Source of the DNA: a virus
Strand: one strand, 5' to 3'
Length of the DNA stretch: 52,079 bases
Virus record (IMG/VR): IMGVR_UViG_3300035192_000069
Below the pieces are notes generated by a model. It saw only the letters and a list, made by a program, of their open reading frames with translations. It had not been told where the DNA came from and did no database searches. This document shows, piece after piece, positions 958-48,130 of the stretch; the first letter of the stretch is position 1, and the number at the start of each line of letters is the position of its first letter. A program made the translations under genes and the position numbers.

Positions 958-1743
958 ATGCTTCCCCGTGTTAAGATCGACGTGGAGGTGAAGCTTTTGT
1001 TCAAAATTGTACTGGATATGCGGCCGATTGAACAGCTCGAAAATGACCTCGACCGATTCGGGAAGCACGCCCTCCCCTATGCCGTCCGGGACACGCTGAA
1101 CACCGCGGCCTACAAAACCTCCGATCTCGCAAAACGAAATATTTCCAGAAAGTTCACTGAAAGGAACACTTTCACAAGACGCTCCGTCCGATTCAAAAAT
1201 ACCTTTGCCCGTCGTATCGACCAGATGGAATCCGTCGTGGGCTCCACCCAGGAATACATGGCCAAACAGGAGGAAGGGTTCACCCAGAAAAAGACGGGCA
1301 AGCACGGTGTCGCCATCCCCACCAGCGCGGCAGCGGGACAAGGGCAAGCCCGGAAGCGCACCCGCAAGCTCCAGCGCCGAAACTGGCTGAACATGGTCAA
1401 GCCCCCCTCGGCCCGGGTGCGCGGGAGGGGACGAACAGTCGTTGCCGTCAGAGACGCCGTAGCAAGCGGCCAGCGGGTTGTATTCGTCACCAAGCGTAAC
1501 GACCCATGGGGACGACCCACTGGATTCTACCGCGTTCTCGGTGGACGTAAAAAGGGCTCCGGATGGCCGAAGGGAGCCAGGCTCCAGATGATTTACTCGG
1601 CCGAGCGCCCCACTGTGCTGACCTCGCCCCATCGCTGGCTTGAGCCAGCCACCGCGGTCATCGTCAAAAAGCTCGACACGATTTATCGCGATGCCGTGAT
1701 TCGACAGATCAAAATTAATCGCTCGTTCCGGGACAGGGGCTGA
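958..1743 (+). CDS. Basic hypothetical protein on the opposite strand to its neighbours (weak resemblance to gpZ/HK97-gp10-type virion completion proteins)
   Basis: 261-aa ORF with ordinary protein composition. The real start could be TTG 997 (GGAGG 8 nt upstream) or ATG 1018. The family assignment comes from pattern memory only. Confidence 0.45.
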   Translation: MLPRVKIDVEVKLLFKIVLDMRPIEQLENDLDRFGKHALPYAVRDTLNTAAYKTSDLAKRNISRKFTERNTFTRRSVRFKNTFARRIDQMESVVGSTQEYMAKQEEGFTQKKTGKHGVAIPTSAAAGQGQARKRTRKLQRRNWLNMVKPPSARVRGRGRTVVAVRDAVASGQRVVFVTKRNDPWGRPTGFYRVLGGRKKGSGWPKGARLQMIYSAERPTVLTSPHRWLEPATAVIVKKLDTIYRDAVIRQIKINRSFRDRG

Positions 1744-1802
1744 TGTCGCCCCGGTACCGAGATGACACTCCATGTTCATTGTCACCTCGAGTTATGAGCG
1801 AC

Positions 1803-2069
1803 TCAAAATGGCCGCATAATCCATGCCGAAAGTATGTCCATGTGTTTTCTAACCGCCTTTTTCACACTCTTCAAATCCGGATACAGATACCAATCAAATG
1901 TAATTCTATGAGCTGAGTATGATTCAGGATTTCTGTCCAGGAACTGTATCTTGTACCTCAAATTGTCATTACATTTTTCAGTATGCTTGCAAATTATCTT
2001 AACTTTTCTAGGCACAGAAATTCCGTCAAAATAATAGACCTCTTCATCTGGTTTAAATTTTTTCATCAC
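1803..2069 (-). CDS. Hypothetical protein
   Basis: 88-aa ORF; its start overlaps the stop of the upstream methyltransferase gene. Confidence 0.5.
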   Translation of the reverse strand: MMKKFKPDEEVYYFDGISVPRKVKIICKHTEKCNDNLRYKIQFLDRNPESYSAHRITFDWYLYPDLKSVKKAVRKHMDILSAWIMRPF

Positions 2070-2734
2070 GTTCTAACTGCCTTTCTATCCAGGTCCTCGA
2101 CGACACTGTCGCTCCGGTACCGGGACGACGCAAACTCCCTCCAAGCCGCCGACACAATCCCGGTGCCAGGAAACAAATCGTCAAACATGTCGCCCGGCGC
2201 TGCAGCAAGCGCTTCGAACAAGAACGCACAGAATGCAATCGGCTTTCGACCCATGAGCGTCCCACCGAACCTGGCCGGCTGAGCTGAGATCCAGTCACGG
2301 ACGCCGGCGTGAACGACACGGGCCTGTTTCACAATCAGTGGCTCCCATGTCGAGTGTAGACCTCGAGTCCTCGGCGACGCTCCGATAGGCTTCACCCATG
2401 CGCATACCCTGACTTCCGGTGGGCAAAGGGGGAGGATGTCGCGCAAGGCCTTCGACGACGTTGACAGCGCCCGCCCATCGTATGTCGCCAGCTGCTCGAG
2501 CAGACGCTCATGATCTACCTCTCTCTGGTAGGTGTCTTCATGCTGGTGGTACTTTTTCGCCATCCCGGGGTAGGGTGGGTCGGCGTAGGCCAGTCGCTTC
2601 GGTTCCCTGGTCGTCGCCTCGAGGTGCGACAGACGCCGAAACCGATAGGCGGCTTGCCTGCACCGTTTGGAACAATAGGTTTGGTGCTTCTCGACGGGCA
2701 CCACCCCACACCATTTGCAGAGCTGTTGAGTCAT
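2066..2734 (-). CDS. DNA methyltransferase (beta-class amino-MTase) with an N-terminal Cys4 zinc ribbon
   Basis: CKWCG...CSKRC, then AYADPPYPG (motif IV) ahead of DLFPGTGIV (motif I-like). ATG 2734 overlaps the upstream stop (TGATG). Confidence 0.7.
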   Translation of the reverse strand: MTQQLCKWCGVVPVEKHQTYCSKRCRQAAYRFRRLSHLEATTREPKRLAYADPPYPGMAKKYHQHEDTYQREVDHERLLEQLATYDGRALSTSSKALRDILPLCPPEVRVCAWVKPIGASPRTRGLHSTWEPLIVKQARVVHAGVRDWISAQPARFGGTLMGRKPIAFCAFLFEALAAAPGDMFDDLFPGTGIVSAAWREFASSRYRSDSVVEDLDRKAVRT

Positions 2735-2982
2735 CAATTGGTGCCTCGACCGGTCGTTTTGAAATCGGTGACTTCCCACAATTCATCGAATTGCTTCAGG
2801 GTAACAGGGAGAAGATAGTCAATAACATTGACAATCGGGATGCCGCGATCAAAGCCGGTGACTATCCCCTCCATGCCAAATTGGATGTCTGCTATCCTTT
2901 TCCCTCTCCCGTCGATAATCAATATGACCGGAAAGCTACTTTTCGCCCGAACGTGCATGCCGAGCTCAATCTTCGTCGTCAT
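2734..2982 (-). CDS. Hypothetical protein
   Basis: Start MTTKIELG is preceded by GGAGGA. The track ORF extends upstream without an SD. Confidence 0.5.
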   Translation of the reverse strand: MTTKIELGMHVRAKSSFPVILIIDGRGKRIADIQFGMEGIVTGFDRGIPIVNVIDYLLPVTLKQFDELWEVTDFKTTGRGTN

Positions 2983-3151
2983 CGTAGAAATCCTCCATAT
3001 TGCCGTGTATCGGTGAAAAGCCATCACAATACCGATCTTGATGAATACGTTCTGCGTAGTGCTCACTCTCTTGGTTCTCGCAATCTCCCTCATTGCCTGA
3101 TCCGCCATAGAAGAAGTAGAAGCATTCCCAGCAAGACTTTTTTCTCTTCAT
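2966..3151 (-). CDS. Small Cys-containing acidic protein
   Basis: Start MKRKKSCWEC is preceded by GGGAGA; 61 aa. Confidence 0.4.
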   Translation of the reverse strand: MKRKKSCWECFYFFYGGSGNEGDCENQESEHYAERIHQDRYCDGFSPIHGNMEDFYDDDED

Positions 3152-3164
3152 GATGTCTCCCTTG

Positions 3165-3192
3165 AAAAACACCAGGAGGGGCCATCCCCTCC
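3165..3192 (-). terminator. Rho-independent terminator after the lipoprotein gene
   Basis: On the minus strand: GGAGGGG-ATGG-CCCCTCC followed by TGGTGTTTTTC. Confidence 0.6.
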
Positions 3193-3206
3193 CAGCGCAG
3201 TCAAAC

Positions 3207-3560
3207 CTACAGAGTCGAAGCCCTCTCCGCACGGTCCAACTGTCCGACCCAGTCCCGAACACATTTCAGAATCCCCGGGACATCCACAGCCTTCATGACG
3301 CAGTCGACCGGCAGTAATCCGGACATCAGCGCGATGTCGCAGTAGGGCTCAAACTCCACTCCTTCCGGCATGCGGCTCGTGATATGCTCCTTCACGATCT
3401 CTTTCACGAACCCTGCGCACTTCTCGTCGTTGAAGCACCCGACCTCCACCAGATGGGCCTCCACCGCGTCACACTTCGGCGCAGCAAGATCGGGGGTGAT
3501 CCTCGCGCCGCTGCATCCCAGAAATACAAACATCAGTCCAATTATAAATAGCACTTTCAT
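3207..3560 (-). CDS. Lipoprotein
   Basis: MKVLFIIGLMFVFLG|CSG signal peptide and lipobox. It is followed by its own terminator. Confidence 0.65.
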   Translation of the reverse strand: MKVLFIIGLMFVFLGCSGARITPDLAAPKCDAVEAHLVEVGCFNDEKCAGFVKEIVKEHITSRMPEGVEFEPYCDIALMSGLLPVDCVMKAVDVPGILKCVRDWVGQLDRAERASTL

Positions 3561-3606
3561 GCTTCCTCCTTGCCCCGTTGGGGCGGTTGATTAATTGTTG
3601 AGTATT

Positions 3607-4251
3607 TCACACCGCAAGCACTCCTTGCGCAAGACGCTGAATAGCTGACCGACAATACGTCTCTTCTATTTCAACACCAACAGCTCGATACCCAAGCGCC
3701 TTTGCCGCAACCAGTGTTGTCCCAGATCCAGCAAACGGATCCAGGATTACACCGCGATGGCAACAGGATATTAAGTCCATCATTAGAGACACGGGCTTTT
3801 CCATTGGATGCCATCTTGATTTTCTTCGTCCTACGCAGCCCGCTACAGCCAAATGTCGCAACACGGATCCTCTTCGCCTTCCAAAGAAACCTCTTCCGAT
3901 TACATATATCTCCTCATGGTTTGGCTTCCATGGCAACGAAAGATCCCCCATGCCAACATGTTCACCTTTCTCCCATATAAGTAAGTGTCGAGTATTTATC
4001 GGGCGAGCAATTTTCCATGTTCCAAACACAAGAGCAGGGCGTTCACCCCATGCGTCAAGCAGTGTGTCACGGGCAACGGTATCCAGATCGCCTTTTATTG
4101 AGCAGTCGCCTAACCGTCCTTTCATTCCACTGCTAAACCCTATCCCATATGGCGGGTCGGTAACCAGTACGTCAGCGCATATCGAGTCAAACACATCCCG
4201 GAAATCGCAATTAAAAATTGTAATCCCTGATTCCTCGTAATAGGGTTTCAC
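3607..4251 (-). CDS. DNA methyltransferase (N6-adenine/N4-cytosine, beta class)
   Basis: LVTDPPYG (motif IV) lies upstream of ILDPFAGSGTT (motif I). GTG 4251 overlaps the upstream TGA (GTGA). Confidence 0.85.
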   Translation of the reverse strand: MKPYYEESGITIFNCDFRDVFDSICADVLVTDPPYGIGFSSGMKGRLGDCSIKGDLDTVARDTLLDAWGERPALVFGTWKIARPINTRHLLIWEKGEHVGMGDLSLPWKPNHEEIYVIGRGFFGRRRGSVLRHLAVAGCVGRRKSRWHPMEKPVSLMMDLISCCHRGVILDPFAGSGTTLVAAKALGYRAVGVEIEETYCRSAIQRLAQGVLAV

Positions 4252-4433
4252 TCCTCTATCTCCTCTCCGTGCGCATTCCAGCACGCTTTAACATTGCCGA
4301 CATACCAATGACAGCATGATGCATCCGTATTGAACGGTCTGGTTTCGCATCCTGCAAAATCGTTGAGAGTGCAAAGGCAACTGTGCCAACTGTACCAAGC
4401 GCATTGTCCACAGTATATTGAGAGGCGACTCAT
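4248..4433 (-). CDS. Small Cys-rich protein (8 Cys in 61 aa)
   Basis: ORF preceded by a GAGGA SD; coupled at both ends. Confidence 0.5.
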   Translation of the reverse strand: MSRLSIYCGQCAWYSWHSCLCTLNDFAGCETRPFNTDASCCHWYVGNVKACWNAHGEEIEE

Positions 4434-4470
4434 GTTGGTCCTCGCTGTATGATTGTTTCAATCGCCAGAA

Positions 4471-4797
4471 TCAGCCGGGCCACCGCGTGAGCCCAGTGGG
4501 GCTCTCCGGTCTCCTCATCGTCTCCCTCTTGCGCAAGATGGGCCAACGCATGTTCGACATTTTCTTGCGCGCTGGCATCGGCATCGGTGTCGAACCTAGA
4601 TCGGCAAGTCTTCCCACGGCGATTACGTTGTCTCTGTGGTTTGTCTTCGGGGAGTACCCGCTGTTGTGCAGGTAAACGTTCACCGTGCTCTTGGCGATGC
4701 CGAGTATCTCCATGATCTCTTCGCGACTCTTGCCCTCTCGGAACAGTCTGATGGTTTCCTTCATACGATAATGCTTCATCTCTTTTGAACCACTCAT
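4471..4797 (-). CDS. Helix-turn-helix DNA-binding protein (3' end and reading frame uncertain)
   Basis: The HTH is GKSREEIMEILGIAKSTVNVYL. The ATG overlaps the upstream stop (ATGA). See the finding on the alternative -1 frame ending at 4430. Confidence 0.55.
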   Translation of the reverse strand: MSGSKEMKHYRMKETIRLFREGKSREEIMEILGIAKSTVNVYLHNSGYSPKTNHRDNVIAVGRLADLGSTPMPMPARKKMSNMRWPILRKRETMRRPESPTGLTRWPG

Positions 4798-5000
4798 TCC
4801 TCAGCCCTTTCAAAGTCATACCCATCAATTTTTTTGACTATATTCCACACCTCTCGCTTGCTCACATTTGGCCACCGCAGCTTGCATTCCTCATGAATCC
4901 ATTGGAGTAAAAATCTCAGCTCGTGGCGATTGCGCGGTTTCCCAGTGCGGGATTCTTGGAGCTCAACGAGACGTTGTATATGTTTATCAACCGACATCAT
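4794..5000 (-). CDS. Hypothetical protein
   Basis: 68-aa ORF in the operon. Confidence 0.5.
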   Translation of the reverse strand: MMSVDKHIQRLVELQESRTGKPRNRHELRFLLQWIHEECKLRWPNVSKREVWNIVKKIDGYDFERAEE

Positions 5001-5400
5001 TCAGGCTGAACACGATCCCACGACAGAAAATTTCGCCGTCTTCAATCACGTCAAACGTCGCATGGGGAATGTCGGTTTCGAACGTCCAAGCGATGTCTCC
5101 ATCACACCATTTCACGTGTATCTTTGTTGCCTGTTCTTTCTTTTTCGCATAGTACGGACATCTATCGTCATCGCATTCGTTGGTGACAATCCCGTCCTTG
5201 TTTAGTGGAACGGTAGCTCCTTCCCATGCGCCAAACTCGTCATTGATTGCGCCCCGGAATTCGCAGAGGTCATCGGACGCGCCAAAGACGATCACGAGAC
5301 CGTTCTCTGCGGCAATCCTCCCCATGTCATCTGGGACTTCATGTCGATACTCTCGATTGTTCAATAGTTTGGCCAACTCTTCTTTTGTAAAATCTTTCAT
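4987..5400 (-). CDS. Hypothetical protein
   Basis: 137-aa ORF with ordinary globular composition. Confidence 0.55.
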   Translation of the reverse strand: MKDFTKEELAKLLNNREYRHEVPDDMGRIAAENGLVIVFGASDDLCEFRGAINDEFGAWEGATVPLNKDGIVTNECDDDRCPYYAKKKEQATKIHVKWCDGDIAWTFETDIPHATFDVIEDGEIFCRGIVFSLNDVG

Positions 5401-5427
5401 TTGTTTGCCTTTCTTGTTAAAGATTTT

Positions 5428-5793
5428 TCATATGCTCCCGCTACCCATCGTAAAATCCGGAAGCGGATCGCTATCCAAACAACAGAACAGATGCAGACAC
5501 CTCGGATGGATGTTGACGTGTTCCTTCGCTTCTGGGAGCACCATCACCGCTTTCCTGTCGTCGCCTATCCAGTGGCGCTTAAGGTAGGTCAACTCGTCGT
5601 ATGTCGGCCTTCTGCGCCTGTGAGATATCGACAGGTGCAGCCAAAATTTCCCGTCACCGTATTGCGCGAATGAGGCGATCACCGCAAGGTTCTTTTTATT
5701 GTTGCGCCATACTCCATGATAGTTGCGCGATGGAATCTCAACCCAACCGGGTGGTAGGTTCCTTCCAGTCAATGGTAATCCTTGATCCATCAC
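5428..5793 (-). CDS. Hypothetical protein (conserved prophage-type)
   Basis: 121-aa ORF containing the motif WLHLSISHRRRRPTYDELTYLKRHW. Confidence 0.5.
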   Translation of the reverse strand: MMDQGLPLTGRNLPPGWVEIPSRNYHGVWRNNKKNLAVIASFAQYGDGKFWLHLSISHRRRRPTYDELTYLKRHWIGDDRKAVMVLPEAKEHVNIHPRCLHLFCCLDSDPLPDFTMGSGSI

Positions 5794-5797
5794 TGCC

Positions 5798-5998
5798 TCA
5801 CTGTTCCTCTTGAAGGGCGAACATGTGCATCGCGACCATGCCAGCTACTGTTGTCGCAGCCTTGAACGCTTCAAATTTCAATTGAGCAATGGCGTTTATC
5901 TTCTCGAGAAAATCCATTTCTTCGTTCAGAACCTGCTCGATTTCCGGATTTATCTTCTCCAGAATTGCGCTGTAGTAGTAATCAATCCCCTTTTCCAT
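5798..5998 (-). CDS. Small protein with a hydrophobic C-terminus
   Basis: 66 aa; its start overlaps the end of the endolysin gene. Confidence 0.45.
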   Translation of the reverse strand: MEKGIDYYYSAILEKINPEIEQVLNEEMDFLEKINAIAQLKFEAFKAATTVAGMVAMHMFALQEEQ

Positions 5999-6461
5999 TT
6001 GCTTTCCCTTTCTGGACTCTTCCTCTGAGCCTTTCCAGCCGCCGCAGTCTAAACGCCGTTATCCTCCGCGCCCTCGGTGTCCCCCTGCATCGGCCAGACG
6101 CATATCGCCACAGGCCGCGCTCCAGGCTCCCACAGAAGCGCCTATCCATATCGATGAGCATTGCCCCACACATCACCTGCCCCCGTGCCGTGGATAGGTC
6201 GTGCTCGCCCTCGCAGGCCTTCCGGTGCTTGCCGTGAACCTGAAAGAGACCGACCTCTCCTAGTGCCCCCTCGGCATCCGCCCGAAATGATGACTCGTAG
6301 AACGACCAGGTGACGAGCAGGGACGGTTCGATGTTGTATCGTTCGCCCGCGTCGACAAAGTGACGTGACATCGTATCCCGCGCATTGGCGTCACGGTACA
6401 GGAGACGATTGGGAGTAGTGGATAACAGGATGAATATTATTGCCGATACCGAGGTCATCAT
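5982..6461 (-). CDS. Lytic transglycosylase (SLT-domain endolysin) with an N-terminal membrane anchor
   Basis: The N-terminus is MMTSVSAIIFILLSTT. The SLT catalytic motif is YESSFRADAEGALGEVGLFQV. Confidence 0.75.
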   Translation of the reverse strand: MMTSVSAIIFILLSTTPNRLLYRDANARDTMSRHFVDAGERYNIEPSLLVTWSFYESSFRADAEGALGEVGLFQVHGKHRKACEGEHDLSTARGQVMCGAMLIDMDRRFCGSLERGLWRYASGRCRGTPRARRITAFRLRRLERLRGRVQKGKANGKGD

Positions 6462-6471
6462 GCAGCACCTC

Positions 6472-6774
6472 CTAAAACTTCGGATCCTTCATTGGACCAC
6501 CGGGTGACTTGGATTCCGCTTTCTTATTTGCTTTAGGCGGGGGTGCTACGGCCTCCACCTGCTGCTCGTCAAACCACTCTGGATCCAACGGCTTCCCGTC
6601 CTTGAGTGTTTTGGATTGGACACTGACTCGAATACAACCGTTAAGCCAAAAGGTGAGGCCGGTCACCACCCCTTCATATCCGGTGATCGTATCTCGAACT
6701 TCCTGTCTTAGTGCGAATCTGCTTTTCAAAGTTGCCATCTTATATCCTTTCTTTTTGGTGTCTGGAATAATCAT
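6472..6774 (-). CDS. Hypothetical protein
   Basis: 100-aa ORF. An alternative start at 6738 (MATLKSRF) has an AAAGGA SD. Confidence 0.5.
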   Translation of the reverse strand: MIIPDTKKKGYKMATLKSRFALRQEVRDTITGYEGVVTGLTFWLNGCIRVSVQSKTLKDGKPLDPEWFDEQQVEAVAPPPKANKKAESKSPGGPMKDPKF

Positions 6775-6896
6775 AGCGCCATCCAGATCTGTTCGATTAG
6801 AGCTGTTATCGATGCCAGAGCCCCGAAGCCAAACAGGAACACCAGCATCCAGAACATGATTTCAATTTTCGACTTTTTGGTTTTTATCAGTCGCAT
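6771..6896 (-). CDS. 41-aa single-pass membrane protein (holin-like candidate; absent from the ORF track)
   Basis: MRLIKTKKSKIEIMFWMLVFLFGFGALASITALIEQIWMAL, with an AAGGA SD. Its stop overlaps the next ATG (ATGA). Confidence 0.5.
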   Translation of the reverse strand: MRLIKTKKSKIEIMFWMLVFLFGFGALASITALIEQIWMAL

Positions 6897-6972
6897 TGGT
6901 TTTCCTTTTTTTGGGCTGCTCATCAGGCCATGGGTGCCACACCATGACTACGGGCCAAAGCCCGTTTCGCAT

Positions 6973-7185
6973 CTAATCCTCCATCTCAAATGCCGGAAGA
7001 GAAGGTGAGCCCTTCTTCAGGCGCTCCGTTGCCCTTGCATGTTCCAGGGTGATACCCATAGCTTTGATAATCCCATGATACAAACGAGCCTCTCCTTGTG
7101 CCTGGTCAACGGTGATTTCACCCTTGGCGAGTTTTTCACGGGTCTCCCTCATCTGGTTGATAATGTCCATTGAATTCAATTTCAT
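6973..7185 (-). CDS. Hypothetical protein
   Basis: 70-aa helical ORF. Confidence 0.5.
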   Translation of the reverse strand: MKLNSMDIINQMRETREKLAKGEITVDQAQGEARLYHGIIKAMGITLEHARATERLKKGSPSLPAFEMED

Positions 7186-7517
7186 TTTGATGCCTTTCTG
7201 TCGCGAATTGCGACGTTTAAATTTCGGAGTTCTTTCCGCATATTGAATTCCTCAGTAGATTTTGAGCTTCGCCGTATATCACCATATGAAACACTACATT
7301 TCCAACACAATGGAATTTCTGACTTCATAGGAATAATTCTACGGCCGCACAATGAACATGACGGAGACTTTCTTTTTATGCCGCGTCTTATTCTAGCATT
7401 TACTACTGAGCTTGAATCGATATTTAGTTTTCGAGCCAATTCTTTGTCATATACCTCACCAAGTGGTTGTTCATCCCAATTTATTCCTTTTTTAGCCGCC
7501 ATTGTTTTGCCATGCAT
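7182..7517 (-). CDS. Putative DNA-binding protein (HTH-like N-terminus plus CxxC..CxxC zinc ribbon)
   Basis: CSLCGRR...CWKC; start coupled as TAATG. Confidence 0.5.
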   Translation of the reverse strand: MHGKTMAAKKGINWDEQPLGEVYDKELARKLNIDSSSVVNARIRRGIKRKSPSCSLCGRRIIPMKSEIPLCWKCSVSYGDIRRSSKSTEEFNMRKELRNLNVAIRDRKASK

Positions 7518-7723
7518 TAGTCCATCCCTCCTTGTTTCCGAATGTAGTCTCTAGATATCCATCCGAGGCGCTCCATTGCCTTCCGGGCAGTATCGGCTTT
7601 ATCCGGGTCGATTCTTGGCTGTTCTGATGATGCCTTAGAGAATCGTCTCTCAAGCATCCTTATTTTCGCTTCCAATAGGATAATATATTCCCTGTCGGTC
7701 AGGAGTCCCTGTTCAATAGTCAT
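7517..7723 (-). CDS. Hypothetical protein
   Basis: Start MTIEQGLL overlaps the dnaB stop (TGATG). Confidence 0.45.
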   Translation of the reverse strand: MTIEQGLLTDREYIILLEAKIRMLERRFSKASSEQPRIDPDKADTARKAMERLGWISRDYIRKQGGMD

Positions 7724-10402: not shown

Positions 10403-10607
10403 GGATGGTCCATGGCCTCAGAACGTCAATCTCGCTCCAAAACTACATATTTTCTGTCAGTCTTGATCGTTTTCTGAATATCTGGCAATTCCTGGAAATT
10501 TGCATTCTTTTCGAAACGATACATGCTTATCATCTGCGAAACAAATCGAAGACTTGGCGGGGAATACAGGTGGCACTGGTGCGCCAAATCAACAGGAAAG
10601 GTGCGAG

Positions 10608-11717
10608 ATGAGTAAGCATGTAAGACAGTCAAAACCCGCCAGGCATGGCAATCAATGGCAAATCAGATGGACCGATGAAACGGGACATAGGCGAAGCGAG
10701 ACGTGGAGCAACTACGAGGACGCCGAGCACGCCTTAGTGACTCACAAACTCCACGTGATGGAGATACGCCGTGGTCTCCGAGTAAGACCACCCAAGAGCC
10801 GTGGCTTTGAGGAACTGTGCCGGCAGTGGCTCGAGATACGCACAGTCAAAAAGCGCACTCCAAAGGACGACACATCAATTATCAGGGTGCATCTGCGGCC
10901 GACCTTCGGCCATTTGGATATCGACCAAATCACTGCTGAACGCATCGATATTTTTTCGGCGGCGCTTTCAGCGAAGCGTGCACCACAGACGGTGAGAAAC
11001 ATTCTAATTCTTCTGGGGGCCATGTTGAGACAGGCGGTAGAGTGGGGGTGGCTCTTGGGCGTTCCTAAGATTCATCTTCCACGAGTTCGACTATTTCCTG
11101 CTGACTGCAAATGGCTACGCACTATCGATGAGCGAGATCAATTCCTGCGCGCGGCGCAAAATCACGCATTGCAGGTTGTCTACCCTATGTACGCCACCGC
11201 TGTGCACACCGGAATGCGCGCCGGCGAGCTCGCGGGTTTACAGTGGCAAGATATAGACTTCGAGCGTCGCCTTATTACCGTTCAAAGGTCATATGGTGGC
11301 CCTACAAAAAGTGGTGATATCCGACGCATACCAATTGGTGACGGCCTACTTCCCATTCTGCGGGAGTGGCGGCTGGCCTGCGGCAACCGGCTGGCGTTTC
11401 CGAATACTGCCGGTCAGATGTGGGATCCGCGCGGGCGTATTTTCAAGACAGTATTCCAAAAAGTGCTTCAGCTCGGCGGATTCCCGCCGAAACATATCAC
11501 CTTCCATTCGTTGAGGCACACGTTCGCGAGCTATTTCTTGATGAATGGTGGCGACTTAGAAGGCCTACGACGGATTCTTGGTCACAAAGACTCGAAGACA
11601 ACCCAGCGGTATGCCCATTGGCGGCCCGATGCCTTTGACAAGTACTGGGGAATCATGGGGCCAACGAAGTGCCACGACGGCGAGGTGATCGAGATGCGCA
11701 AGAAGGAGGAGGCATGA
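10608..11717 (+). CDS. int: Tyrosine recombinase (phage integrase)
   Basis: The C-terminal motifs are HSLRHTFASYFL...LGHKDSKTTQRYAH. The start MSKHVRQ follows AGGAAAGG. The gene lies next to the tRNA-fragment attP. Confidence 0.92.
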   Translation: MSKHVRQSKPARHGNQWQIRWTDETGHRRSETWSNYEDAEHALVTHKLHVMEIRRGLRVRPPKSRGFEELCRQWLEIRTVKKRTPKDDTSIIRVHLRPTFGHLDIDQITAERIDIFSAALSAKRAPQTVRNILILLGAMLRQAVEWGWLLGVPKIHLPRVRLFPADCKWLRTIDERDQFLRAAQNHALQVVYPMYATAVHTGMRAGELAGLQWQDIDFERRLITVQRSYGGPTKSGDIRRIPIGDGLLPILREWRLACGNRLAFPNTAGQMWDPRGRIFKTVFQKVLQLGGFPPKHITFHSLRHTFASYFLMNGGDLEGLRRILGHKDSKTTQRYAHWRPDAFDKYWGIMGPTKCHDGEVIEMRKKEEA

Positions 11718-45794: not shown

Positions 45795-46054
45795 GCGGAC
45801 CTCACCAGGCTTGTCCCGCTGCCGTTGAGTCTGGTATCGAGCCAATCCAAGCGGAGATAGAGCTTGTCGAGCTCGACGTTTAGCCGCGATATATCCTTCT
45901 TCGTCACCGTCTGCCGGGTCTGGCCTGTATCAATCGTGTAGCTCTGGAGATTTCCAGTAGACAGCGCAAGAATAGCGTCCTCGATGGCCTCGATGGCCGT
46001 TTTGGTCTTATCGATCCGAGATTGGAGCCATGTTGCGGTTATTGCTGATGCCAT
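45791..46054 (-). CDS. Head-tail joining protein gpW-like
   Basis: 87 aa with the pattern AILALSTGNLQSYTIDTGQTRQTVTKKDISRLNVELDKL, as in lambda W. Confidence 0.65.
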   Translation of the reverse strand: MASAITATWLQSRIDKTKTAIEAIEDAILALSTGNLQSYTIDTGQTRQTVTKKDISRLNVELDKLYLRLDWLDTRLNGSGTSLVRSA

Positions 46055-46194
46055 GTCTCATAGCCCAAAATTGAGACAAAAATGTCTCTCTGAGACAAGT
46101 ATGTCTCATTAGTGTCTCACTGGTCAAGCGAGAATGTATAAAAATGTCTCACTTGTATAATTATATAATAAATACAGCTATTTAGATTGTCTCA
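46054..46194. promoter_or_regulatory. Iteron-like array: 8 copies of TGTCTC(A)/TGAGACA plus an AT-rich block with divergent TATAAT boxes
   Basis: Direct copies lie at 46054, 46083, 46102, 46113, 46145 and 46188. Inverted copies lie at 46072 and 46091. TATAAT lies at 46156-61 (+) and ATTATA at 46160-65 (TATAAT on the minus strand). Confidence 0.7.
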
Positions 46195-46226
46195 AAAAAA
46201 GATTTTGCCTGATTCACTTTTTTGCT

Positions 46227-46246
46227 GGACACATCCGGATGTGTCC
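46227..46246. promoter_or_regulatory. Perfect 20-bp palindrome (operator candidate) upstream of the island
   Basis: GGACACATCCGGATGTGTCC, followed by TATAGT at 46249-54. Confidence 0.6.
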
Positions 46247-46301
46247 GCTATAGTAGGTACAGATGGTCGCAATGAAGCGACCATGAGCAAAGGAGAGACA
46301 G

Positions 46302-46469
46302 ATGACAAACTTAACAGGACACGAAGCCATCGAATTCAAGCGAGCAAACCCAGAAGCCAAGCTCAGCAAATACGCCGATCCTACTGAGGACGCGCGAGAG
46401 GACATCTCGGTAGAGGATGCTGAGGAAATCGCCAGCGAAGACCCCAGTCTTATCTACGTTGCAGACTGA
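46302..46469 (+). CDS. Island gene 1: 55-aa acidic protein (absent from the ORF track)
   Basis: MTNLTGHEAIEFKRANPEAKLSKYADPTEDAREDISVEDAEEIASEDPSLIYVAD, with an AAAGGAGAG SD. Confidence 0.55.
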   Translation: MTNLTGHEAIEFKRANPEAKLSKYADPTEDAREDISVEDAEEIASEDPSLIYVAD

Positions 46470-46512
46470 ACCGACCCCCACCCTGTCCCAGACATCTCGG
46501 GGGTGGGAGTGG
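46467..46512 (+). repeat. Intergenic hairpin element, copy A
   Basis: TGAACCGACCCCCACCCTG, 16 variable nt, then GGTGGGAGTGG. Confidence 0.8.
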
Positions 46513-46542
46513 CGACTGATTCGACCAAAAAAGGAGAGCAAA

Positions 46543-46788
46543 GTGAAAATGCATTACAAAGAAGTATGTGGTATCGATCCGAAATACCCCGAATGGGGAT
46601 ACAACATAGAAGGAAGACTCTTTCTCTTTGAGAAAGAGTCGAGAACATGGAAATTGTTCTCCTATACGGGAGGGTGGCGGGAGTGTTCGGAGCCAGACTG
46701 TACGCTGCTTCCTATTGCTCCACAAGAAGCAATCGATTTTCAGAGGCGCCGACCGGCGCCTAGATTCAGATTTAAATGTGATCGCTGA
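46543..46788 (+). CDS. Island gene 2: hypothetical protein
   Basis: GTG start 6 nt after AAGGAGAG; 81 aa. Confidence 0.5.
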   Translation: MKMHYKEVCGIDPKYPEWGYNIEGRLFLFEKESRTWKLFSYTGGWRECSEPDCTLLPIAPQEAIDFQRRRPAPRFRFKCDR

Positions 46789-46831
46789 ACCGACCCCCAC
46801 CCTGCCCGCCACTATGTGACGGTGGGAGTGG
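46786..46831 (+). repeat. Intergenic hairpin element, copy B
   Basis: Same 19-nt and 11-nt arms as copy A, with a different 16-nt centre. Confidence 0.8.
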
Positions 46832-46862
46832 AGGCCGATTCGGCCAAGACAAGGAGTATAAG

Positions 46863-47258
46863 ATGAATACGAAAAAAACATGGACAAAGAGCGAACTATG
46901 GGCAGCAATGTGTCAATACGAAGGAGAGTTCACGCTCGCACATGCAGAAAGCGTCCTGAAGTATTTTGACTGTGGCGAGTGCCCCGGAAGAGTCGGGGAT
47001 GAGTGTGACACTTGTCCCATAAAGAAGGCGGAGACTGTTAGGGGTAATTATTTGTGGAAAATGGCTGCCGATACTCACCAATATTGCTACAAAACAGACG
47101 GAGAAAGCGGGATAATTCAGGCATCCTCGATTGAGGATGCTCGTGACAAAATGATTATCGAGGCCGGCCTTACGCCGGCAGCAATCAAGAATGGAGCATG
47201 GGGCTGGGTGGAGGATTGCGATGGCGTCCGAATCTACGTCGCCGAAGAAAACATATAG
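46863..47258 (+). CDS. Island gene 3: hypothetical protein with a CxxC..CxxC motif
   Basis: AAGGAG SD; CGECPGRVGDECDTCP. Confidence 0.55.
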   Translation: MNTKKTWTKSELWAAMCQYEGEFTLAHAESVLKYFDCGECPGRVGDECDTCPIKKAETVRGNYLWKMAADTHQYCYKTDGESGIIQASSIEDARDKMIIEAGLTPAAIKNGAWGWVEDCDGVRIYVAEENI

Positions 47259-47292
47259 TGGTCGATTATCGGCCAAGCAAAGGAGTGTAAAG

Positions 47293-47781
47293 ATGGGAGA
47301 ATTATTAGATCAAGTAATGGCCGGAGGGCCGACAGAGTTGGAATTAGATTCTAAGCAACAGCGTGTCGTGGATTGTCTGAAGGAGGACCCATCGGGTTGG
47401 GCTTGGCAATTGTCCAGAGAGCAAATATTAAATCCATTACGAGAGGCGGTGAAAGAAGAACTTCTTTCAGATTCCTCCTGTAAATTAAGCTGTGCATTCT
47501 TAACCTACGATATGTTGATTGAGTCGTGCGCCAGCGAAGACGACTCGGAGTCCTGGGCCCGTAAGTTGATTGCGTGGATGAGTCCGCATTTGACTCAGTT
47601 CCATTTCGGGCCAAAAGGTTGGCACGATGCATTTCGGAGTGCTATTGTCAAGGAGGCCAAGTGGTTGCGAGACCACGAAAAATACCAAAAAGCTGCTCGA
47701 GTTGACAGTCCAGATCTTCCTGTGTGGGAAAACAAGGCGTGCCTTGTACTGGCGGAGCTGTTGGAGGCGGAGACAGTATGA
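47293..47781 (+). CDS. Island gene 4: hypothetical protein
   Basis: AAGGAG SD; 162 aa. Confidence 0.55.
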   Translation: MGELLDQVMAGGPTELELDSKQQRVVDCLKEDPSGWAWQLSREQILNPLREAVKEELLSDSSCKLSCAFLTYDMLIESCASEDDSESWARKLIAWMSPHLTQFHFGPKGWHDAFRSAIVKEAKWLRDHEKYQKAARVDSPDLPVWENKACLVLAELLEAETV

Positions 47782-47851
47782 CAGACTACGTCCGAATGGA
47801 GAAGCGTCACAGAAATCACAGGTTGCCGTGGTCGCGGCCAAGGGGTGAGAG

Positions 47852-48130
47852 ATGAGCACCGACGCGGCCGTGACGGCCGCTCGCCTACTACTCGAAGCGA
47901 ACGTCCCGAGCGGCATCACCCAAGAGCGGATCGACCGGCTCGCCGAGGTGATAAAGGGACTCACCGAAGATGAGCTTTCACGGCTCAGAATCGAGACATG
48001 TGCCCACGGGGGAGGGGACCCGGAGCGATACGGGAAACGGAAGAAGCGCGCCGGGCGGGCTGTCAAGATAGGGACCGCTGGCGTACATCCTGGTGAGAAA
48101 GGCGTCCAGATTTGGGCGGTATGGGCTTAG
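47852..48130 (+). CDS. Island gene 5: hypothetical protein
   Basis: AAGGGGTGAGAG SD; 92 aa; its 3' end overlaps the terL 3' end by 4 bp (convergent). Confidence 0.5.
   Translation: MSTDAAVTAARLLLEANVPSGITQERIDRLAEVIKGLTEDELSRLRIETCAHGGGDPERYGKRKKRAGRAVKIGTAGVHPGEKGVQIWAVWA

Follow-up and report, generated by a model that had tools for sequence, protein, structure and literature searches.

An oriented stop-to-start element with a covariation-supported sense-strand hairpin in a reshuffled, single-promoter ORFan operon of a lambda-like phage

Repeats with a regulatory or linking role in the hyperplastic regions of phage genomes have already been described. The promoter-early stem-loops (PeSLs) of T4-type phages are repeated intergenic cassettes, each made of a promoter and a stem-loop, which flank ORFans and mediate modular shuffling (PMC2839356, PMC4122927). 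The SAS/ESAS repeats of Cluster K mycobacteriophages consist of a Shine–Dalgarno (SD)-containing repeat at gene starts and an upstream inverted repeat, and their function is still unassigned (PMC3203893, PMC12699233). The present work concerns an element of ~80 nucleotides (nt) that occurs twice in a 52,079-nt stretch of viral DNA (IMG/VR record IMGVR_UViG_3300035192_000069; 'the window' denotes this entire stretch). It is an oriented element running from the stop codon of one gene to the start codon of the next, with a sense-strand hairpin supported by covariation, in an operon of ORFans that has one promoter and is reshuffled at the element; on the comparisons made here, it is a candidate for a new RNA motif.

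Five small plus-strand open reading frames (ORFs), called island genes 1 to 5, lie between the genes for the large terminase (TerL) and the gpW-like head-tail adaptor, and the two full copies of the element (A and B) join the first three of them. Bit scores and E values refer to R1, a covariance model built on 19 copies of the element.

46302-46469, plus strand: island gene 1, a 55-aa acidic ORFan of cassette family F1.
46467-46545, plus strand: element copy A, from the TGA of gene 1 to the GTG start at 46543 (72.6 bits, E = 7e-18); it comprises the TGA stop, the AACCGACC block, hairpin 1 at 46478-46512 with a single A·G mismatch, hairpin 2 at 46514-46526, degenerate through two mismatches, an AAGGAG SD at 46531-46536 and the GTG.
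46543-46788, plus strand: island gene 2, an 81-aa ORFan of family F6 with a GTG start.
46786-46865, plus strand: element copy B, from the TGA of gene 2 to the ATG start at 46863 (81.9 bits, E = 2e-20); it comprises the TGA stop, the AACCGACC block, hairpin 1 at 46797-46831 with a single C·A mismatch, hairpin 2 at 46833-46845 (GGCCG-ATT-CGGCC), an AAGGAG SD at 46851-46856 and the ATG.
46863-47258, plus strand: island gene 3, 131 aa with an ATG start, a fusion of two cassettes that are separate in relatives.
47293-47781, plus strand: island gene 4, a 162-aa ORFan of family F5.
47852-48130, plus strand: island gene 5, a 92-aa ORFan of family F9, whose stop overlaps the TerL stop on the opposite strand.

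Both copies reach from TGA to the next start codon just as a first-pass annotation of the window had described, and the blocks that it found common to them are there: TGAACCGACCCCCACCCTG (19 nt), a 16-nt centre that differs, then GGTGGGAGTGG. The 18-mer GAACCGACCCCCACCCTG and the gapped hairpin pattern are found only at A and B in the 52 kb, where shuffles predict 0.02 and 0.00 occurrences, respectively, and the two copies are the only full members detected when the window is scanned with R1.

In all, R1 yields 24 strong copies, each with E below 1e-10, and some five that score more weakly. They are spread over 10 uncultured phage contigs, namely the window itself and L001, L002, L005 (identical to L172), L067, L146, L199, L296, L297 and L298. 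The copies had been recovered by DNA pattern scans of IMG/VR and of metagenomes, and by looking up contigs that encode homologues of gene 1. Every copy is in the sense orientation, the stop codon of the upstream ORF occupies alignment columns 4-6 in all of them, and 22 of the 24 end in an AAGGAG-like SD and the next start codon, the other two passing into an AT-rich spacer. A miniature inverted-repeat transposable element or other transposon was considered and rejected, there being no terminal inverted repeats or target duplications, and the orientation and stop/start register being strict. In a collection of 185,579 reference species genomes, all 64 matches to the canonical pattern fail R1 and are taken as chance; the metagenome scan gave 54 loci, of which just two are genuine, L199 and L172, the latter being the L005 contig. 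The 14-mer GGCCGATTCGGCCA, tried as a probe, was set aside after returning 119 loci, nearly all of them chance and only L067 genuine. No Rfam family reaches its gathering score anywhere in the window, and at E up to 5 the island gives only two chance-level hits. Arrays with more distant homologues of gene 1 (L290-L295, L299 and L300) contain no element. Two of these, from unrelated phages, carry intergenic units of their own, L293 one of ~57 nt ending in GGGGAG..ATG, in 3-4 copies (1758-2413, 3611-3645), and L295 one of ~44-58 nt with the hairpin TCACTTTTC-ACTT-GAAAAGTGA, in 5-6 copies (1346-7715). Because these arrays have different repeats of their own, lineage-specific intergenic modules may be common in accessory-gene arrays.

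The order of parts in the element is an embedded stop codon, an AAYCGACC block, hairpin 1, hairpin 2, an unpaired A-rich spacer with AAGGAG, and a start codon. Hairpin 1 had first been drawn as a stem of CCCACC with GGTGGG around a free loop, which proves to be the wrong register: in 19 copies the central A of this stem pairs in 10 of 18 cases and meets C in the other 8, nothing in it rises above shuffles, and the 16-nt centre that had been taken for a loop forms the upper half of a longer, covarying hairpin. RNAalifold and manual inspection agree on a core pairing of CCTGCCCGYCA(C) with (G)TGGCGGGYGGG, which CCAC/GTGG extends across a bulged A to a total of 15-16 bp (CCAC-CCTGCCCGYCA / TGGCGGGYGGG-A-GTGG). 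Sequence conservation marks its lower stem and covariation its upper stem, with 90% of cells paired across the 24 copies and compensatory changes at pairs 27-39, 28-38 and 29-37, where G-C, C-G, A-U and U-A alternate. There are 12 compensatory cells vs 5.5±2.1 in shuffles (a number reached by 3 of 500), and the covariation score of 0.188 vs 0.143 is reached by none of 500; sliding the partners by 1-3 columns brings this score to 0.091 or below. The first-pass annotation had staked its proposal on compensatory changes in homologous islands, and such cells are indeed seen in the 24-copy alignment.

Pairs of the U·G or G·U type are in the majority at 22-44 (22 of 24 copies), 23-43 (13 of 24) and 28-38 (12 of 24). 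On the antisense strand, the U·G pairs of the stem turn into A·C mismatches, and folding is accordingly better for the sense strand, with a mean of -21.7 vs -17.0 kcal/mol for the antisense strand and a more stable fold in 20 of the 24 copies (Wilcoxon p = 3e-4). This bias points to RNA, or at least to the sense strand, rather than to a symmetric DNA site. It bears directly on a reading that we consider very unlikely, in which the element is a recombination site at the DNA level, attC-like or a hairpin for an HUH or tyrosine recombinase, and is cut and rejoined as folded single-stranded DNA. Promoter-less cassettes in one orientation behind one promoter, an element that begins at the stop codon, inverted repeats that are imperfect, have a variable centre and include a bulged base, and a cassette order shuffled across contigs and backbones are all features that such a site would share. 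However, the alignment contains no RYYYAAC/GTTRRRY core sites, and the favoured fold is on the sense (top) strand owing to the many G·T(U) pairs, whereas attC sites are bottom-strand folds. Moreover, no recombinase adjoins any array (the sole integrase-family gene of the window, at 10500-11714, is ~35 kb from the island), and similarity between copies breaks at no single fixed position.

Hairpin 2, GGCCG-ATT-CGGCC (5 bp), is paired in 87% of cells, with several G·U pairs, and introduces a leader of the form CGGCCA(A/G)-A-rich-AAGGAG-N6-8-ATG. It shows one compensatory change from G-C to A-U (in L005), favouring it over an alternative fold in which AAYCGACC pairs with GGCCGATT; this extension, possible in nearly all copies, takes hairpin 1 to ~23 pairs at the cost of hairpin 2. 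The two halves of the element are also found apart. The 3' half (hairpin 2 and SD) stands alone before gene 4, as a 5'-truncated element, and the homologue of gene 4 in L297 is preceded by a full one; the leader of gene 1 is a diverged look-alike of this half at the 5' end of the operon; and L005 and L199 have the 5' half (hairpin 1) with an AT-rich spacer between it and the next gene. As the halves occur separately, hairpin 1 can be assigned to the upstream unit, as its 3' end, and hairpin 2 with the SD to the downstream cistron, as its leader. L296 also has a relic of the 3' half (GGCCAATTCGGCCAAAAAAGGA) at 864-895, within the 3' end of a cassette ORF, which suggests that elements can become absorbed into coding sequence.

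The half-elements of L005 and L199 are relevant to a further idea, namely partial termination or attenuation by a signal that has no U-tract and that either needs a factor or is host-specific, which would set up a polarity gradient or insulate the operon. A stable GC-rich hairpin does lie straight after each stop codon, the two copies with hairpin 1 and then an AT-rich spacer can be read as the end of one unit and a restart, and the stem-loops of PeSLs act as terminators (PMC2839356). Nevertheless, this is a highly improbable role. The first-pass annotation had seen no U-tract, and no T-run lies behind any copy; a terminator scan is silent at the elements, and a consensus scan finds neither promoter nor intrinsic terminator inside copies A and B. 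The AT-rich spacers behind the half-elements look promoter-like by eye, but no promoter is found there by consensus scan, in L005 or in L199. Furthermore, four or five elements stand in series in L005 and L199, where even modest termination would silence the distal genes.

The other three leaders of the island in the window are as follows.

46263-46301, plus strand: gene-1 leader, an 8-bp hairpin ATGGTCGC-AATGAA-GCGACCAT (46263-46284), then GAGCAAAGGAG (SD 46290-46295).
47256-47295, plus strand: gene-4 leader, TAG-TGGTCG-ATTAT-CGGCC-AAGCAAAGGAG (hairpin 47260-47274, SD 47280-47285, ATG 47293).
47825-47851, plus strand: gene-5 leader, GCCG-TGGTCG-CGGC-CAAGGGGTGAGAG, with a weak 4-bp hairpin.

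These sequences are present as quoted at first pass, where it was held that all five genes share the module, a claim that stands only in part. When the leaders are folded, signal is obtained for the copies of relatives (z -3.2 to -4.3), for copy B (z -2.8) and for the gene-1 hairpin (minimum free energy of the leader -13.7 kcal/mol, z -2.2), and not for copy A or gene 5. The leaders of genes 1 and 4 are marginal hits of R1 (13.1 bits, E = 0.28, the best plus-strand hit that is not an element, and 12.1 bits, E = 0.55, respectively), hairpin 2 of copy A has its two mismatches, and the gene-5 leader, with only 4 bp and z +0.47, is missed by R1. The gene-1 hairpin, positioned at or near the predicted 5' end of the transcript, is preserved in L002 and L296 through a change from U-A to U·G. 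That of gene 4 is weaker (-8.6 kcal/mol, z -1.2), and in L002 and L067 a G-to-A change disrupts one of its pairs. The gene-5 leader is invariant in L002 and L067 and therefore uninformative there, and the gene-5 homologue of L296 starts (1788) where the preceding ORF ends, hence without a leader of this type, so that its membership of the module is doubtful. A motif written after the leaders had been inspected, CG[AG]CCA-N2-10-AGGAG, occurs five times in the 52 kb, four of them as the leaders of genes 1-4, with 0.66 expected genome-wide. A crude genome-wide scan of folding energy upstream of SDs, which scored only genes 2 and 3 correctly among the island genes, ranks these two 23rd and 11th of 63 SD-preceded ORFs and did not single out the island leaders. 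In sum, the finding made at first pass is real and better supported than the window alone suggests, though its structure needed correction and its scope was somewhat overstated.

ORF clustering of the ten arrays reveals the same gene families in differing orders and combinations, with the element at many joints. After gene 1 comes the gene-2 family in the window and L002, the F11 family (not in the window) in L067 and L001, and F19 in L296 and L298. Family F1 itself directly precedes an element in 9 contigs, and gene 1 has 31 homologue clusters in metagenomes; homologues of gene 2 are found in L002, L199 and L297. Gene 3 is composite: its Cys-rich N-terminal part matches a separate gene of L005 (residues 1-73, 79%), with a homologous separate gene also in L296, and its C-terminal part (…YKTDGESGIIQASSIE…, residues 64/74-131) is a separate gene in L002, L067 and L001. 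Gene 5 is 98% identical to its homologues in L002 and L067, a tblastn search with gene 4 gave no match, and none of the five island proteins has a match in sequence searches of Pfam, PHROGs, NCBIfam or PDB. The site of the array varies: it is the TerL-gpW gap in the window, L002 and L067, in L005 the array lies upstream of DNA polymerase genes, and in L001 it adjoins an Erf-like gene. Having the same upstream gene does not guarantee the same hairpin tip or SD spacer, and either can be common to copies whose neighbours differ.

Copies that lie behind homologous gene-1 genes are 90% identical in the outer element, 75% in the adjacent coding DNA, 65% in the hairpin tip and 65% in the SD spacer. 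The better conservation of the outer element than of neighbouring homologous coding DNA argues against its being functionless, that is, a recently duplicated spacer homogenised by gene conversion, or a selfish repeat, whose palindromy is historical. This possibility, which would be consistent with the narrow distribution (10 contigs, no copy with the canonical pattern in the genome collection and no match in Rfam), the decay of the window copies and the paucity of independent compensatory events, is rather unlikely, since the hairpin survives two-sided changes and one-strand-only G·U pairs, and orientation and stop/start register are strict in all copies. A bolder proposal would make the element the junction site of a phage-borne, integron-like cassette system, in which a putative dedicated factor recognises the module, either as folded nucleic acid or by targeted homologous exchange, and captures and reshuffles small accessory genes (possibly anti-defence) between unrelated backbones, the module also standardising their expression as RNA. 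We regard this as quite unlikely.

The explanation to which we give somewhat better than even credence is that the ~80-nt unit is a promoter-less intercistronic RNA punctuation module in a single-promoter accessory-gene operon, doubling as a recombination linker. Hairpin 1 would act on the mRNA as a 3' stabiliser, as an endonuclease processing site, or as both, and, with the AAYCGACC/GGCCGATT extension (~23 pairs), it would have the length of an RNase III substrate. The idealised substrate of this enzyme is 22 bp and many cellular substrates are ~20 bp or shorter, and when it cuts only one strand, the message is left with a 3' hairpin that stabilises it (PMC3867540). Whatever the upstream gene, hairpin 2 together with the A-rich spacer would leave the SD accessible, giving any cassette the same standard setting for its expression. 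The 40-60 conserved nt would in turn offer phage recombinases enough homology to exchange, add or remove cassettes where genes meet, the enzymes involved presumably being the YqaJ-like exonuclease encoded in the window and the Erf-like annealing protein of L001. Homology of this kind would explain why gene orders are shuffled and why one element recurs in unrelated backbones, and a linker role in evolution is supported by the comparison of the arrays. The first-pass annotation had offered post-transcriptional control and cassette assembly as options; the comparative data lend support to both, the RNase or regulator site itself being putative.

Several observations weigh against this explanation. 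The pairs with a change on both sides number five, which is not above shuffles (reached by 131 of 500), and because the copies are related, the cell counts overstate the number of events; independent compensatory events in hairpin 1 are few. Sequence conservation of the lower stem could stem from gene conversion and not from function. Covariation gives no information on the AAYCGACC/GGCCGATT extension or on most of hairpin 2, since both hardly vary. The SD is unpaired in both alternative folds, so that no translation switch is evident. Finally, the two copies of the window are the most decayed of the family, with hairpin 1 at -15.0 kcal/mol in one and -15.5 in copy A, whose entire leader (z -0.70) folds no better than shuffles.

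The distribution of conservation within the element brings in another candidate role, that of an operator. A sequence-specific RNA-binding protein, whether a dedicated endoribonuclease or a translational regulator from phage or host, would then control all cassettes jointly, recognising either hairpin 1, by its conserved lower stem and flanks, or else hairpin 2 beside the SD. Conservation reaches 85-90% in the lower stem, the 5' block and hairpin 2, and the tip covaries freely (65-67%), as is typical of hairpins that proteins recognise; the position relative to stop codon and SD is fixed; and the SAS/ESAS of mycobacteriophages have been proposed as such sites (PMC3203893). However, there is no candidate binder, given the lack of family matches for the island proteins and of a fold match for gene 5, no cassette co-occurs with the element in all contigs, homologues of gene 1 are also found in element-free arrays, and the SD is not sequestered in any predicted fold. 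An operator is, in our view, an unlikely account of the element.

The surroundings of the island in the window are those of a lambda-like temperate phage genome, which besides the genes below includes a tyrosine integrase, a DnaB helicase, the YqaJ-like recombination exonuclease and a methylase.

50711-50121, minus strand: small terminase (TerS).
50121-48127, minus strand: gpA-type large terminase (TerL).
46054-45791, minus strand: gpW-like head-tail adaptor.
45845-44136, minus strand: portal.
44139-43027, minus strand: protease.
46226-46254, plus strand: island promoter candidate, TGGACA-17 nt-TATAGT (10 of 12 matches in a consensus scan).
46227-46246: perfect 20-bp palindrome GGACACATCC|GGATGTGTCC, overlapping the -35 of the island promoter.

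The nearest cultured relative is Oceanospirillum phage PD0307, with a portal ~44% identical. In this phage, TerL is followed after 60 nt by the gpW-like gene, without an island, and the five window genes are therefore an inserted island, antisense to the TerL and gpW late genes and transcribed against them. Searches for the locus elsewhere were negative or nearly so: among GenBank phages, blastn aligned no more than 106 nt, in the portal/gpW region, and a TerL-based search of IMG/VR gave no match. Between the window and both L002 and L067, gene 5, gpW, portal and protease are 93-100% identical, while TerL is 49% and TerS 39% identical. Such values are those of a swap of the packaging module, with its junction at the overlapping convergent stops of gene 5 and TerL (48127-48130).

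The promoter candidate is the only plus-strand promoter-like site that the consensus scan finds upstream of the island genes. The palindrome over its -35 is kept in L002 and L067 and has a counterpart, TGACACGCCA|TGGCGTGTCG, in the same relative place in L296 (31-50); the half-sites GACAC/GTGTC are constant in the window and L296 and the inner bases vary symmetrically, so that it looks like an operator for a dimeric repressor. Gene 5 was considered as an Aca-like repressor acting on this palindrome and rejected: nothing in PDB resembles the fold of its AlphaFold model (pLDDT 77) at an E value below 0.9, the best obtained, and the idea is therefore unsupported. Seven of the eight TGTCTCA heptamers of the window, in both orientations, are clustered at 46054-46194, between the gpW start and the island promoter, adjoining two minus-strand promoter-like sites. 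This region is nearly identical in L002 and L067, and the heptamers are candidate operator or activator boxes for a restart of late transcription. Far from the island, a type II hammerhead ribozyme (RF02276, 60.7 bits vs a gathering score of 37) is located at 6910-6972 on the minus strand, between small minus-strand ORFs of the early region, and the phage probably also processes a transcript there through self-cleavage.

If the preferred explanation is correct, the element would be an undescribed structured RNA motif, not in Rfam, and would show how some temperate phages assemble plug-and-play accessory-gene operons. One and the same spacer would end a gene, protect or process the message, present the next ribosome-binding site and supply homology for exchange at exact gene boundaries, even across different backbones. 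It would thus extend the PeSL idea from T4-like lytic to lambda-like temperate phages, and from promoter-terminator to promoter-less intercistronic units, and could represent a compact natural insulator part for synthetic operons, although its reach is limited by its being known from only about ten uncultured contigs.

Comparison with described systems helps to place the element. Integron attC sites recombine as bottom-strand folds. They resemble the element in that promoter-less cassettes of one orientation and variable content stand behind one promoter, with an imperfect palindrome of variable centre starting at or near the stop codon. However, neither R'' (RYYYAAC) nor R' (GTTRRRY) is present in the 24-copy alignment, in which the ends are T(G/A)A-AYCGACC and CGGCCA, the fold favoured here is that of the sense strand, no IntI is adjacent and the crossover points are variable. 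The REP/BIME repeats of enterobacterial operons are likewise imperfect intercistronic palindromes able to stabilise upstream mRNA, but REPs are chromosomal, linked to RAYT transposases and present in hundreds of copies in both orientations, whereas the element is found in few phage contigs only, in a single orientation and fused to an SD leader. From intrinsic terminators it differs by the absence of a U-tract behind the hairpin in any copy. The early and late mRNAs of phage T7 carry intercistronic RNase III processing hairpins, which are imperfect and span roughly two helical turns. The element likewise lies between the cistrons of a polycistronic phage mRNA, with an imperfect hairpin that may be of similar length; by analogy, the element could leave a stabilising 3' hairpin upstream and a defined 5' leader downstream. 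The secure stem here is, however, 15-16 bp, its extension to ~23 pairs is without covariation support and there is no sequence relation to T7.

In layout, the SAS/ESAS are the closest parallel. They too have an SD motif of one orientation a few bases upstream of starts, before a subset of non-structural genes of different families, and an imperfect inverted repeat with a variable spacer just upstream of this motif, a resemblance of architecture and not of homology. They belong to another host group and have a 13-bp consensus (GGGATAGGAGCCC) 3-7 bp upstream of the start and 17-bp inverted repeats, whereas no such 13-mer is found here and the element also embeds the upstream stop codon. Departures within ESAS repeats do not support an RNA hairpin according to their authors (PMC3203893), in contrast to the compensatory and G·U changes that support one here.

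As a concept, PeSLs are closest. Each PeSL has a strong sigma-70 early promoter and a working terminator, and the ORFan that it flanks is therefore its own transcription unit. The element described here has neither promoter nor U-tract, lies inside one polycistronic operon, embeds a stop codon and ends in an SD; it belongs to lambda-like temperate and not T4-like phages and has no sequence similarity to PeSLs. With no promoter and no terminator features in the scans, it is therefore not a PeSL. The two share the following: both are short, conserved composite motifs with a GC-rich stem-loop, repeated in ORFan-rich hyperplastic intergenic spaces, and PeSLs are homology linkers for gene insertion, deletion and swaps between related phages, at junctions of the kind that are also found in the arrays compared here.

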